In this document: positions 24,105-41,884 of the stretch, in pieces
Numbering within the stretch: position 1 is the first letter of the stretch
Layout of the letters: every line of letters starts with the position of its first letter
NCBI GenBank assembly: GCA_963811105.1
Contig: CAWEPZ010000011.1
Coordinates: 1,280,001-1,344,000 of the forward strand
Direction: 5' to 3'
DNA: 64,000 nt
Source of the DNA: Candidatus Bathyarchaeota archaeon
GTDB lineage: Archaea > Thermoproteota > Bathyarchaeia > Bathyarchaeales > Bathycorpusculaceae
Translations under genes and position numbers: made by a program
Notes under the pieces: model-generated
The model's database searches: none
Told to the model about the DNA's origin: nothing
The model's input: only the letters and a program-made list of their open reading frames with translations

Positions 24105-24353
24105 ATGAGTAAATCAAGGCAAGGTGGCAGTTACGAGGGAAAACGTGGTCATGGCAAGGGTTTTAAACGTTGTCCAGTCGAGTTGGGAGAAGAATTAGAA
24201 GCAGAAATTACGGAATTGAGCTCAAAAGGGGAAGGCATAGCTAGAAATCAAGGCTTTCCAATTTATGTTGCCGACGCAAAACCTGGAGACCGAGTAAAAA
24301 TAAAGATAACCAGAATAACCGACAAAGCAGCAAACGCACAAGTAGTCAAATAG
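24105..24353 (+). CDS. Stand-alone TRAM-domain protein (RNA chaperone-like)
   Basis: PVELGEELEAEI...KGEGIARNQGFPIYVADAKPGDRVKIKI. Confidence 0.9.
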   Translation: MSKSRQGGSYEGKRGHGKGFKRCPVELGEELEAEITELSSKGEGIARNQGFPIYVADAKPGDRVKIKITRITDKAANAQVVK

Positions 24354-24651
24354 ATCGCGCTCAGCAAAAACGCGAACTAACATTTTTGAAAAATCAACGT
24401 GTACAGTTTAAAACTAAATAGTTAGTTAGAAATCGCGTTGCAATTTCTAAACGGGTTTAAATCCCTGTTTGACCATATCTACATTACAGAGCGAGCGGTT
24501 TTAGAACAGTAGAAAATGTTTAGTCTCCAGTCTCTTACTGTTCAAATCATCTTATTCAACGTGACTGAGATTTGGGCATTTCCTGCGAATCACAAAAACG
24601 CTTACTATGCTAAAAAAGACTATTAATGAATAAAATTATGGAGAGAATAAC

Positions 24652-26292
24652 TTGGCATATTTAACTCAAACCCAAAGTGGTCAACCTGTACTCATTCTGA
24701 AGGAGGGGACCTCTCGAAGCAGAGGGAAAGAAGCCCAGAGAAACAATATAATGGCCGCACGAGTAATTGGCGAAGTACTCAAAACAACCTTAGGCCCAAA
24801 GGGCATGGACAAAATGCTCATCGACAGCCTAGGCGACATAACAATAACAAACGACGGCGCTGCAATCCTAAAAGAAATAGACGTCGAGCACCCAGCAGCA
24901 AAAATGATGGTTGAAATCGCCAAGACACAAGACGACATGGTGGGCGACGGAACAACAACCGCCGTGGTGTTGGCCAGTGAACTTCTCAAGAAAGCTGAAG
25001 AATTATTGGATCAGAACATTCACCCAATCATACTTGTCAGTGGATACCGCAAGGCATCTCAAAAAGCAATCGAAATCATAGAGAAAATCGCGGTGCCCAT
25101 CGACGTGGAAGATCAAAAAACAATGATGAAAGTCGCCTTGACGTCCATGGGAAGTAAAGCCGTGGGTGGTGCTAAAGAGCACTTTGCAGAAATCGCCATA
25201 GAAGCTGTAAAGCAGATATCCGAGAAACGTGGAGACAAGACAATAGCAGACATAGATAACATACAGCTGGTGAAGAAGACGGGAAAAAGCCTCATCGAGA
25301 CGCAACTCGTCAGAGGCATAATCGTTGACAAAGAAGTCGTCCATCCAGCGATGCCCCGAAAAAAAGAAAACGCGAAAATCGCACTTTTAGATTCTGCATT
25401 GGAAATTGAGAAAACCGAAATGAGCGCCGAAATACGCATACGCGATCCGAACCAAATGAAAGCTTTCCTCGACCAAGAGGACAGCATGCTCAAAGACATG
25501 GTGACCAAGATCAAAGCTTCAGGCGCCGCTGTTGTGTTCTGCCAGAAAGGATTAGACGACATGGTTCAACACTACCTATCTAAAGAAGGAATAATGGCTG
25601 CCAGACGTCTCAAGGAGTCAGACATGGAGAAACTCGCAAGAGCAACAGGCGGAAGAGTTACCTCCAATTTGAACGATTTGAAGACGACAGACTTAGGTTT
25701 TGCCGGCTTGGTCGAAGAGCGCAAGATCGGCGACGACAAAATGATCTTCGTTGAAAAATGCAAAGATCCTCACTCAGTAGCCATACTGATACGAGCAGGG
25801 CTTGAACGAATGGTGGATGAAGCTGAAAGAGCAATTATCGACGCGCTTTCAGTTGTTTCAGATGTTGTTGAAAACAGCAAAATCGTCGCAGGCGGAGGAG
25901 CCGCAGAAATCGAAGTTGCAAAAGAACTGCGCAAATACGCCAACAAAGTCGGCGGAAGAGAACAATTAGCCGTTGAAGCATTCGCAGATGCAATGGAAGT
26001 AATCCCACGTACACTCGCAGAAAACGCTGGGCTAGATCCAATAGATGTACTAGCGGAACTAAGATCAGCACACGACAAAGAAACCGGCAAATACATGGGC
26101 ATAAACGTTTTCACGGGAAAAGTGCAGAACAGCATCGACAACGGCGTAATCGAACCAATCGCCGTTAAAGAACAAGCAATCAAATCCGCAGCAGAATCAG
26201 CAGCCATGATACTACGCATTGACGATGTCATAACATCCAAAGCGCCAAAAGGCGGACCAGCCGGTCGGAATGCCCGGCGGTCCCGAAGGTGA
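24652..26292 (+). CDS. ths: Thermosome (group II chaperonin) subunit; tail apparently frameshifted
   Basis: [38 protein letters not shown] start. Confidence 0.95.
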
Positions 26293-26454
26293 AGAATAAA
26301 AATCGCCCAATTCTTTAAAAAATAACCGTTGTGCGTGTTTAAAAAGATCTAGCCCTGTTTAGGGGCTATGGATGAAAAAGTTACCTTGAATATTAACCCA
26401 GTTAATAGTGGTTTTTTTTGAAAGTAGGATCTTTGTAATTGTTGTTAAGGGGTG

Positions 26455-40404: not shown

Positions 40405-40810
40405 ATAATAATTTTGAAATAGTTATTCTCAGTGCACTCAAAACTGAATAGCGTAAATGCCTTAAAGGGAATAGCTAACAGGTGGATACCTTATGTCATT
40501 CAACAACAGTTAAACGCTAAATCCGACGGAAAATCAGCGGTTTATTGGTTAGATGGCATTCCGAAATCCGATGATGCAGAACTTAAGGAAGGCGGGTTAA
40601 AGGCTTTTTCAGGTTCTGGTATACTATCTAGTGGTAGGCTAACTTTTTCTCCCTTTTACAATTCGGGTGATGATTGATTTTTACCAAAAGAATAAAAAAC
40701 TGTGAAAACCAAATAGTTTTTCTTGAGAGGTTTTTGGTGTGTACATAGCGCCATCATCATAGAAAGGCTTAAGCCTACTTTGGAAAATAGGATACTGAGG
40801 AGCTTATGAA

Positions 40811-41320
40811 ATGGTTAACGAAAGAATTAATGAGACTAAACAAAAAATTTTAGATTGGCTTAAAGAAGAAGCTTTTTCCGCAGAAGAAAAAGCTGACCCA
40901 AACGCATTTTTCAATATACAAGCAACTAGGAATAACATGGGGGTCAACATTATCCAGGCTATTCCTCGCAATGATAGTTTCTTTGTAGTAGCAAACATAA
41001 TCACAGCTGAAGAGGAACAAACTTTCTTGAAGGGTATGGGTTCTGAGAAAAGGCTAGATTTTATTTGGGATTTGCAAATGAACCTTCTTAAGAACAATGA
41101 ACTTGGCGATTTTGCTTTTAAACCAAAAGCTCCAGAGGAAATACAAATAATAACTATCACTTCAAGGGCAATTTTTTATGATGAGTTAACAAAAGCAAAA
41201 CTCCATTTCACAATACACGTTGTTCTAAAAGCTATGGTAATGACTATGTGGATGTTGCAAAAATATGCAGGAATAGCCCTTCCGAAGATAAACCAGAAAA
41301 AGCAAGACTATTCTATGTAG
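40811..41320 (+). CDS. DUF2299-like protein
   Basis: KILDWLKEE..., FIWDLQMNLL, IFYDELTK. Confidence 0.7.
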   Translation: MVNERINETKQKILDWLKEEAFSAEEKADPNAFFNIQATRNNMGVNIIQAIPRNDSFFVVANIITAEEEQTFLKGMGSEKRLDFIWDLQMNLLKNNELGDFAFKPKAPEEIQIITITSRAIFYDELTKAKLHFTIHVVLKAMVMTMWMLQKYAGIALPKINQKKQDYSM

Positions 41321-41659
41321 TAACTTCCAGTTTTGTTTACTTTTTTCTTCTAAGGTATTGACGTGAGTTACACAGGTCGTTCAAAGGGTTCTTATGGGCT
41401 TATAATGTTTCAGCGTTTTCATGCTTAAAGTGAATCTTCGGGGAACACAGTAAAGTGATACAACATAGTCACCGAATTGCTCTTTAAGGCATCCATTTAC
41501 AAGCAAAAGACGCCGAAAATGAAGGCTTCATTGTTACGTGGAACCTTCCCTGGTGCTTTCACGGGGTTTTCGAACTTAAGCAAATTGTGCTTTTAGAATT
41601 AGCGTCTGAAATGGGTATATAAAGTCATTTTACCTTTTTAATATGACAGGTTGAATGTT

Positions 41660-41884
41660 ATGCCGAAATGTCCAAATTGTACAGCTCATATGAAAGAACC
41701 AGATAAAGAATGGAACTTTGGGCAATTTCGAGTAAAGATGTATAAGTGCACTAAATGCGGAAATCAATTTAGAGAATACTTCAAAGAAAACACTTTGAAA
41801 TTTACTTTGAGCGCACACAACGGTGGCTTGGGAAAGACCAGAGTGAGCAAAGAAACAACGGATAGACACAAGTTCTATCAATAA
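41660..41884 (+). CDS. Cren7-like zinc-ribbon protein
   Basis: MPKCPNC...PDKEWNFGQFRVKMYKCTKCGNQFREY; P-x-K-x-W and G-x-x-F-R recall Cren7. Confidence 0.6.
   Translation: MPKCPNCTAHMKEPDKEWNFGQFRVKMYKCTKCGNQFREYFKENTLKFTLSAHNGGLGKTRVSKETTDRHKFYQ

Follow-up and report, generated by a model that had tools for sequence, protein, structure and literature searches.

A second, mosaic RNA polymerase subunit B gene in a probable horizontally acquired island of housekeeping paralogues in Bathyarchaeia

Introduction

The genome of a Candidatus Bathyarchaeota archaeon from soil (GCA_963811105.1, an assembly of 3.49 Mb in 15 contigs, here G000) carries, beside its canonical rpoB, a second intact gene for RNA polymerase subunit B, which we call RpoB2. 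It lies among further copies of transcription, chromatin and protein quality control genes in the window, the 64-kb stretch of DNA analysed here (positions 1280001-1344000 of contig C11; coordinates without a contig name count from its first letter). The part of the window from about 21.9 to 42.9 kb is probably a horizontally acquired island of old, intact housekeeping paralogues that are kept beside the canonical genes, with RpoB2 largely overwritten by gene conversion.

Core informational genes, rpoB among them, serve as single-copy markers and are regarded as resistant to both transfer and duplication. In one Bathyarchaeia genus, however, six of 120 species have a second rpoB, which appears to travel with paralogues of other cellular machinery and to recombine with the resident gene. 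This bears on how paralogous polymerase subunits arise. It also concerns marker phylogeny: a second rpoB inflates contamination estimates, and gene conversion scrambles rpoB trees. Soil and sediment Bathyarchaeia have no cultured model, and the island provides a concrete gene set to follow in metatranscriptomes.

A second rpoB with a mosaic history

RpoB2 is an uninterrupted open reading frame (ORF) with all seven Rpb2 domains (PF04563, PF04561, PF04565, PF04566, PF04567, PF00562, PF04560) over residues 23-1119 of 1123. The canonical rpoB lies on another contig (C1:35801-39169), directly followed by rpoA, L30e and the NusA-KH gene, and the two RpoB proteins are 93% identical in amino acids (aa). 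Canonical RpoA (C1:39172-43005) is a single fused 1277-aa ORF with A' and A'' domains 1-5; the gene upstream of canonical rpoB is an N6/N4 DNA methylase, not rpoH. An intact rpoA is absent after RpoB2, where only a decayed remnant of 105 nucleotides (nt) remains, and in front of RpoB2 lies a 49-residue fragment of the methylase gene found upstream of canonical rpoB on C1:

34840-34983, plus strand, N6/N4 DNA-methylase remnant, aa 210-258 of 315, 53% identity (blastx, tblastn)
35238-38609, plus strand, RpoB2, second RNA polymerase subunit B, 1123 aa, intact
38610-38714, plus strand, rpoA remnant, first ~36 codons with a frameshift and a stop

These remnants on either side mark RpoB2 as a segmental copy of methylase-rpoB-rpoA, in which the flanking pieces have decayed whereas rpoB2 is intact.

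A DNA search for the Cdc48-RpoB region in 120 genomes of the genus, with two candidates scored per genome, found an extra Cdc48 gene (Cdc48-2) followed by RpoB2 with the same flanks in six of them, that is, in G141, G198 (on two contigs), G219, G222 and G252 (5 of 119) besides G000. Canonical rpoB was also found in G141, G219, G222 and G252 (partial), and in G141 and G219 the two copies share a contig. For G198 both scored candidates were of the B2 type. An earlier draw of 24 congeners had shown two full rpoB genes in G000 alone; the first RpoB tree and pairwise dN/dS made from it left the two G000 copies in a polytomy and were set aside, the draw having contained no other B2 genome.

In a whole-gene tree the seven B2 copies form one clade (support 100/100), nested among canonical rpoB genes beside those of G003 and G174. 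We rejected this placement as a measure of the age of the paralogue, since sliding windows and a tree of the 5' end reveal a mosaic. Among themselves the B2 copies agree at 91-98% as far as about nt 375, but no canonical gene exceeds 79% identity to them as far as about nt 300. A tree of nt 22-375 places all 22 canonical genes in one clade that excludes B2 (99/96); between B2 and canonical genes this 5' segment is synonymously saturated (proportion of synonymous differences, pS, 0.92) at a nonsynonymous divergence (dN) of 0.096. Beyond the 5' segment, B2 and the canonical genes from the G219/G004/G200/G003 group share 90-99% identity, and the B2 and canonical genes of G219 itself agree at 93-99% over nt ~1126-2500. 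These comparisons show RpoB2 to be a mosaic, whose first ~330-375 nt would represent an old separate lineage and whose remainder would have been overwritten by canonical copies via gene conversion. We read the 5' end as an old paralogue, or possibly a xenologue from outside the genus. A search with the first 125 residues of RpoB2 against a protein collection returned 82-91% identity to many RpoB proteins and was abandoned for lack of resolution, the B2 signal being mostly synonymous. A tract at nt ~2941-3060, 92-97% identical to the canonical copy of G000 and 83-93% to the best other B2, may be a short conversion from the genome's own canonical gene, and is only suggestive.

At the protein level, eight fixed B2 residues occur in none of the 22 canonical proteins (T17S, P51N, I66V, S103A, A104V, P397S, I1092V, Q1109K), and every one of these changes is conservative. 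The protrusion domain contains five of them, with T17S a little ahead of that domain, and the C-terminal anchor contains two; none is in the fork or hybrid-binding domains.

Extra copies of housekeeping genes around RpoB2

Profile searches with Pfam and NCBIfam gave the gene identities of the cluster, and tBLASTn of its proteins against the whole assembly the copy numbers. Apart from the RpoB2 locus, the cluster comprises:

24105-24353, plus strand, TRAM-domain protein, extra copy (three in genome), 89% aa identity to a copy in the G222 island
24652-26292, plus strand, thermosome subunit Ths1, extra copy, 96% aa identity to G141
26455-28122, minus strand, thermosome subunit Ths2, extra copy, convergent with Ths1, 92% identity to G141
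28338-28553, minus strand, o71, a 71-aa zinc-ribbon microprotein
29067-30245, plus strand, Vps4-2, extra Vps4/CdvC-like AAA ATPase, 94.6% identity to G219
31053-31613, plus strand, TBP3, a third TBP, orthologues in G020 (92%), G219 (91%) and G003 (86%)
31735-31914, plus strand, o59, a 59-aa basic microprotein with a paralogue beside the Alba gene on contig C2
32613-34781, plus strand, Cdc48-2, extra Cdc48, both AAA modules intact, 73% identity to canonical
38884-39171, minus strand, Alba, extra copy (five in genome), convergent partner of TBP3 in G020 and G003
40811-41320, plus strand, DUF2299 protein, single copy in G000, 90% aa identity to G219
41651-41884, plus strand, 77-aa zinc-ribbon ORF
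42188-42859, plus strand, o223, a 223-aa protein, family unassigned, at the end of a stretch 92% identical in nt to G219

The first-pass annotation, made from the DNA letters alone, had named nine genes here: TRAM, two thermosome genes, Vps4/CdvC, TBP, Cdc48, RpoB, Alba and a Cren7-like gene. Eight were confirmed at their coordinates. The ninth, the ORF at 41651-41884, is a zinc-ribbon protein by a weak match (PF13453, E 5e-4), also matches PHROG 10675 (function unknown), and has no Cren7 family match in Pfam at an E of 0.01 or better. Other elements of that annotation were borne out. It had proposed that the genes are extra copies, which is true of every confirmed one, with canonical rpoB-rpoA and cdvB-cdvA-cdvB-cdvC contexts elsewhere in the genome; that their usual operon partners are missing, as is the case for rpoA after RpoB2 and for cdvA and cdvB beside Vps4-2; that gene remnants lie among them, which holds for the methylase piece, the rpoA piece and a decayed integrase; and that they lie downstream of an integration hotspot, the tRNA site described below.

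In total, G000 holds two RpoB genes, five close thermosomes plus one distant, three TBP, three Cdc48, two CdvC-like, five Alba and three TRAM genes. Vps4-2 has MIT, AAA and Vps4_C domains (PF04212, PF00004, PF09336) with Walker A and B motifs; it is 75% identical in aa to the canonical CdvC on C13 and scores 498.7 bits with the NCBIfam CdvC profile, under the cut-off of 650. The canonical cdv operon on C13 runs Snf7-CdvA-Snf7-CdvC, and Pfam found neither a Snf7 nor a CdvA gene in the island. The canonical CdvC (C13:85295-86471) shows a frameshift near codon 316 in the assembly, which may stem from a sequencing error or reflect a true replacement; no such break is present in the island copy. 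TBP3 is 74% and 64% identical to the two canonical TBPs.

In trees from a sample of five congeners, TBP3 groups with its G020 and G003 counterparts, apart from the two canonical TBP groups. Three thermosome orthologue groups each hold one G000 gene nested among relatives, and Ths1 and Ths2 each branch outside one of these groups (98 and 100), Ths1 outside the genus alpha-type clade. In a survey of 151 genomes of the order, a second thermosome copy in G066, a member of a different family, is 83% identical to Ths2; several other families have best copies at 73-74%, and the orthologues of the genus itself reach only 61-66%. The extra thermosome genes thus look acquired from outside the sampled clade, not duplicated in place, and the Ths2 comparison suggests that an accessory thermosome moves between families. 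The G066 copy lies at a contig end (C25:269-3260); the orthologue of that genome proper is 69% identical.

Full-length paralogues at 60% identity or more are found for 324 of the 3133 crude ORFs of the genome, and seven consecutive annotated genes of the cluster have one, a run that exceeds chance. The 14 largest other paralogue pairs are transposases, surface proteins, signalling proteins, a pilus ATPase, pyruvate kinase and AlkZ; no informational gene is among them. A simple check for TATA-like words upstream of the cluster genes was uninformative.

Distribution of the island genes among relatives

In the other RpoB2-bearing genomes, Cdc48-2 is always upstream of RpoB2. The closest match to the window is G219, whose gene order is Vps4-2, TBP3, Cdc48-2, RpoB2, o71, SSB, Alba, glycosyltransferase, o59, TFB, L18Ae, DUF2299, zinc-ribbon, o223; it is collinear with G000 for Vps4-2, TBP3, Cdc48-2, RpoB2, Alba, DUF2299, the zinc-ribbon ORF and o223, and window positions 40724-42872 are 92% identical in nt. 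The other genomes share smaller parts. G141 and G198 hold the Ths1-Ths2 pair, and G222 has a TRAM and a PCNA gene beside Alba-o71-RpoB2-Cdc48-2. In G020, Cdc48-2, TBP3 and Alba are present and RpoB2 was not found by tBLASTn and DNA searches; G003 has TBP3-SSB-Alba only. The microprotein gene o71 adjoins RpoB2 in G219, G222 and G198 and Alba in G141. Four of the six RpoB2 genomes have Alba on the same contig stretch as RpoB2, and two have it at another place in the genome. In five relatives, homologues of the cluster genes are dispersed around the genome.

TBP3 and Alba abut in G020, and between the same breakpoints (31636 and 38711) the window holds 7 kb with o59, Cdc48-2 and RpoB2. The TBP3-Alba module of G003, G020 and G219 lies amid chromosomal genes (IlvD, LeuA, adenosine kinase, glycosyltransferase, L18Ae). 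Insertion sequence (IS) transposases are interspersed in the G219 island, and they flank the module in G219 and G222. Sub-modules therefore recur across genomes, so that the island genes would form a flexible gene pool. In public data, proteins of the Cdc48-2 type make up at least 115 clusters at 80-95% identity, many on long contigs. The G219 (C3:917001-957000) and G222 (C8:186001-206000) islands also hold TFB, an SSB-like OB protein, LSm, Hjc, L18Ae and PCNA, which lie among IS4/IS5-type transposases.

Horizontal spread and selective constraint

Synonymous divergence (dS) was compared between island genes and core genes, and the ratio dN/dS (omega) was taken against the copies in other genomes:

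Cdc48-2, dS of G000 to other island genomes 0.07-0.14, omega 0.27-0.43
TBP3, dS of G000 to other island genomes 0.10-0.14, omega 0.33-0.47
Vps4-2, dS of G000 to other island genomes 0.12, omega 0.21
DUF2299 protein, dS of G000 to other island genomes 0.11, omega 0.18
RpoB2 5' segment, dS 0.115 (median over all B2 pairs)
Canonical rpoB of the same species, dS 1.0-1.46
Ths1, omega 0.06; Ths2, omega 0.135; Alba, omega 0.06-0.14
o71, omega 0.5-0.9

With a dS of about 0.1 in the island and above 1 in the canonical gene, the island is far younger in these genomes than the species themselves, which points to horizontal spread. Nucleotide identity agrees, at 88-94% for island DNA and 78-83% for a conserved block of ATP-citrate lyase (ACL), IDH and aconitase genes further along the window.

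In codons 1-110 of RpoB2 there are 16 nonsynonymous and 22 synonymous changes among the seven copies (omega about 0.20, binomial p 1e-6). Overall the island copies appear to be constrained (omega 0.05-0.47), mostly less tightly than canonical rpoB.

The tRNA integration site and the boundaries of the island

Upstream of the cluster lies an intron-containing tRNA gene, which was detected by Rfam and missed by ARAGORN (no tRNA called in the window). The last 25 nt of this tRNA (its own copy at 12150) are repeated three times downstream, where 0 occurrences are expected in shuffles. The repeats resemble attachment (att) sites and close three tandem islets, and the last of them is the left edge of the paralogue island:

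12051-12171, plus strand, intron-containing tRNA gene (Rfam RF00005, 47.6 bits)
16379-16403, plus strand, att-like tRNA 3'-end copy, 1 mismatch, closes islet 1 (NikR, ZnuABC)
18585-18609, plus strand, att-like tRNA 3'-end copy, 1 mismatch, closes islet 2 (PAS histidine kinase)
21888-21912, plus strand, att-like tRNA 3'-end copy, exact, closes islet 3 (HCP, HTH_10)
21951-22617, minus strand, decayed tyrosine recombinase (integrase), fragments with stops
22806-23348, plus strand, protein of a 150-180 aa family with about 20 copies in the genome

The integrase remnant matches PF00589 at 22080-22241 and 22276-22494, with two TAG stops, and is 41-46% identical (blastx) to an intact 425-aa integrase at C14:6221-7498; a 50-aa piece matches integrases in NCBIfam and PHROG. 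A functional integrase was not found, the region 21951-22617 holding only fragments with stops. Synteny with G003 (a complete genome) and G001 runs to the tRNA, breaks just after it, and resumes at ~57.3 kb (G003) and ~59.3 kb (G001). The ACL-IDH-aconitase block (49.6-56.5 kb) is kept in six other congeners at the nt identity given above.

Several neighbouring features were noted. None of the three tandem islets (12051-21912) has an integrase of its own. The nikR-znuABC genes of islet 1 are a second copy, 72-94% identical to C2:418-421 kb. The protein at 22806-23348 adjoins the integrase remnant; it has no Pfam or NCBIfam match and a weak match to a 'D5-like' PHROG (E 3e-4). Between the integrase remnant and the TRAM gene lies a DUF3800-X RNA (23772-23845, minus strand; RF02984, 60.9 bits against a gathering threshold of 38.2). 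Two further repeats of the tRNA 3' end (2 and 1 mismatches) occur close to the end of C1, at C1:110608-114218, together with another remnant of an integrase and a gene with PQQ repeats. Outside the cluster, the window contains core genes (S6e, S24e, S19, L2, L4, L3, eIF2-gamma, Rpo7) in addition to the ACL, IDH and aconitase genes. At 42963-48792 there are two large PQQ beta-propeller/Ig-domain surface proteins on opposite strands, with a 520-nt inverted repeat (75%), members of a family with many copies across the genome.

Independent samples

Parts of the 8.6-kb stretch from TBP3 to Alba were recovered in runs of 14 studies. In three DNA runs, each from a different study, contigs that match at 95% identity or more account for 28-30 of the 30 bins across window positions 23-43 kb; a single contig (34755-35717) runs from the last part of Cdc48-2 into the first part of RpoB2. 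The best-covering DNA run may be the source sample. A DNA contig of run X3 joins 34945 to 39756 and skips 4810 nt with RpoB2 and Alba; its shorter side is 28 letters long, so it is a weak sign of what could be a variant without RpoB2, and it was not used as evidence.

Discussion

Starting from the observed extra copies, their island position and patchy sharing, the low dS between species, the mosaic structure of RpoB2 and an omega below 1, we propose the following account. G000 would have acquired the island by horizontal transfer from a congeneric donor, one similar to G219 for the right half, and the DNA would have inserted at or beside a tRNA site that integrating elements hit repeatedly. 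Its cargo would have been RpoB2, Cdc48-2, TBP3, Alba, Vps4-2, the two thermosome subunits and TRAM, all additional to canonical genes. RpoB2 would stem from the segmental copy whose flanks decayed while the gene stayed intact; the resident canonical rpoB would overwrite most of it repeatedly by gene conversion, and the 5' end, which encodes the N-terminal protrusion segment, would persist as a separate lineage together with the upstream Cdc48-2. We infer that the island products are made and used as alternative or additional subunits alongside the canonical ones. RpoB2 would then assemble with the single fused RpoA, TBP3 would operate at promoters, and the chaperonin, Cdc48 and Vps4 copies would make up additional rings. 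As RpoB2 differs by only eight fixed conservative residues, different regulation or dosage is likely, rather than new chemistry.

Several observations weigh against this account. No att copy was found in the window to the right of the paralogue island, and the right boundary at ~42.9 kb is drawn from similarity to G219 alone. The full nine-gene arrangement is seen in G000 only, and gene content varies from genome to genome, which speaks against one fixed functional unit. The omega of Cdc48-2, TBP3 and Vps4-2 (0.2-0.47) is much above that of canonical rpoB (0.02-0.07), which would be relaxed constraint or short-timescale inflation. For the whole RpoB2 gene omega is 0.03-0.06, a value confounded by gene conversion from a selected copy and unusable as a sign of selection on B2. 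The B2 genes of G141 and G222 (two of seven copies) each have a 1-nt insertion outside homopolymers; these frameshifts may be assembly noise, because the canonical rpoB assemblies of G219, G220 and G223 also show indels. A metatranscriptome run from a wetland (X19) yielded contigs 95-99% identical over parts of Ths1, Vps4-2, TBP3, Cdc48-2, RpoB2 and Alba, but it leaves 13 of 30 bins uncovered, and such contigs cannot give level or strand and may reflect DNA carry-over; as a sign of expression they are a weak hint only and were not used as evidence.

Many of the same points bear on the alternative that the island genes are passenger duplicates without a function of their own, kept intact by recent transfer and, for RpoB2, by conversion repair from the essential copy. 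Evident gene conversion in RpoB2, the omega values of Cdc48-2, TBP3 and Vps4-2 and the higher ones of o71, the frameshifting insertions, the patchy gene content and, weakly, the X3 joint with its 28-letter side that omits RpoB2 and Alba would all fit. We nevertheless consider this unlikely. The paralogues are old, at 65-75% aa identity to their canonical counterparts and with the saturated 5' segment of RpoB2 (pS 0.92, dN 0.096), and despite this age they keep full domain sets and intact Walker motifs. The conversion-free 5' segment of RpoB2 still lies below the neutral nonsynonymous count (p 1e-6), while the neighbouring methylase and rpoA pieces, which are unprotected, have decayed. The public clusters of Cdc48-2-type proteins, at least 115 and many on long contigs, argue against mere passengers as well.

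A bolder extension of the acquired-island account, which we regard as quite unlikely, is that RpoB2, Cdc48-2, TBP3 and Alba form a transferable alternative transcription kit. Two polymerase forms would be built from one RpoA and two exchangeable B subunits, the B2-specific protrusion segment, which alone escapes gene conversion, would adjust how the polymerase contacts initiation factors, for instance TBP3 or an extra TFB, and Cdc48-2, always adjacent, would exchange or clear polymerase. If true, a living organism would illustrate how the path to multiple nuclear-type polymerases begins, and informational genes would be seen to pass from species to species as a unit.

The cluster might also have arrived in a large integrated virus, plasmid or Borg-like element whose own versions of host machinery take over or supplement the host. 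The island begins directly to the right of an att copy and a decayed integrase, is patchily distributed with a dS of about 0.1 between species whose core genes exceed 1, and has IS transposases flanking the module in G219 and G222; Ths2 is closer to copies from other families (83% to G066) than to genus orthologues. Against this, when 20 ORFs, small or of unknown kind, were scanned against PHROGs, the integrase remnant and some weak matches came up but no hallmark gene for capsid, packaging or replication, and Pfam on the larger ORFs of the window gave no viral or plasmid hallmark either. A right-hand att is missing from the window, none was found in the fetched island parts of five other genomes, and the TBP3-Alba module sits among ordinary chromosomal genes in G003, G020 and G219. 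Such an origin is decidedly improbable.

Host-takeover cargo of a degenerate element was one of two functions suggested by the first-pass annotation: the decayed integrase and att repeats agree with it, and the lack of viral or plasmid hallmarks and the chromosomal setting in G219 and G003 do not. The other, a single co-regulated expression programme, is only a possibility, given that gene content differs between genomes. The proposed tests gave a separate RpoB2 clade and dN/dS values of 0.05-0.47, not near 1. Co-clustering in relatives held for the Cdc48-2-RpoB2 pair in 5 of 119 genomes and for the collinear right half in G219; the nine genes as a whole were seen together only in G000.

The remaining explanations have little weight. 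The extra copies could serve as decoys or back-ups against viruses or inhibitors that hit RNA polymerase, TBP, ESCRT, chaperonin or Cdc48, in the manner of resistant actinomycete rpoB paralogues. The choice of genes, their mobile, patchy distribution and the existence of those actinomycete paralogues (in the accessible part of PMC5431353) are all that favours this, and it is very unlikely: RpoB2 has only its eight fixed, conservative substitutions, and general scans of the window recognised no defence-system genes, no search having been aimed at defence systems. An assembly or binning artefact of mixed strains is next to impossible, despite 15 contigs, an estimated contamination of 4.3% and a canonical operon on a separate 115-kb contig, because the island lies within a 1.5-Mb contig between core genes, C1 has only rpoB (82% over 3465 nt) as a long match to the rest of the assembly and is therefore not a strain duplicate, both copies share a contig in G141 and G219, and contigs from three studies cover the region, one of them bridging Cdc48-2 and RpoB2.

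Comparison with known systems

In actinomycetes with a duplicated rpoB (Nonomuraea, with rpoB(S)/rpoB(R), and also Nocardia and Microbispora), the second copy has an altered rifamycin pocket, and antibiotic resistance and secondary metabolism are linked to it. RpoB2 resembles these cases in that two full-length genes are present per genome with one set of partner subunits, the second copy being outside the rpoB-rpoC/rpoA operon. Unlike the bacterial pairs, archaeal RpoB2 has eight conservative differences, mostly in the N-terminal protrusion, is apparently mobile between species and homogenised by gene conversion, and shows no function-altering substitutions in the inhibitor-binding or active-site region. 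Actinomycete rpoB paralogues are described in the accessible part of PMC5431353.

Like archaeal elements that target tRNA genes, the site in the window has direct repeats of a tRNA 3' end, an integrase next to an att copy, and DNA that is missing in relatives at that site; unlike them, its integrase is decayed, no right-hand att was found in the window and no element-maintenance genes were recognised. Haloarchaea have multiple TBP and TFB paralogues, partly on megaplasmids. The island likewise places extra general transcription factors on accessory DNA, with three TBPs in G000 and a TFB in the G219 island. It differs in that these are bundled with paralogues of a polymerase core subunit, chromatin protein, chaperonin and AAA unfoldase, in a chromosomal island and not on a separate replicon. 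Thermosome subunit paralogy with gene conversion was reportedly treated by Archibald and Roger in 2002. In archaea, extra chaperonin subunits confined to particular lineages and gene conversion between paralogues are an established theme; the conversion documented here is in rpoB.

For the polymerase subunit itself, rpoB is used as a marker gene (for example in the accessible part of PMC9012536), and literature searches, with supplements outside their scope, turned up no archaeal rpoB paralogue. The accessible part of a 2026 preprint on archaeal duplications mentions Cdc48 and TFB-type factors that stabilise TBP binding, and not RNA polymerase. Multiple TBP and TFB genes, thermosome paralogy and islands at tRNA sites are already known; their combination here, together with a mobile, conversion-maintained second RpoB in an archaeon, is a new variation on these known kinds.

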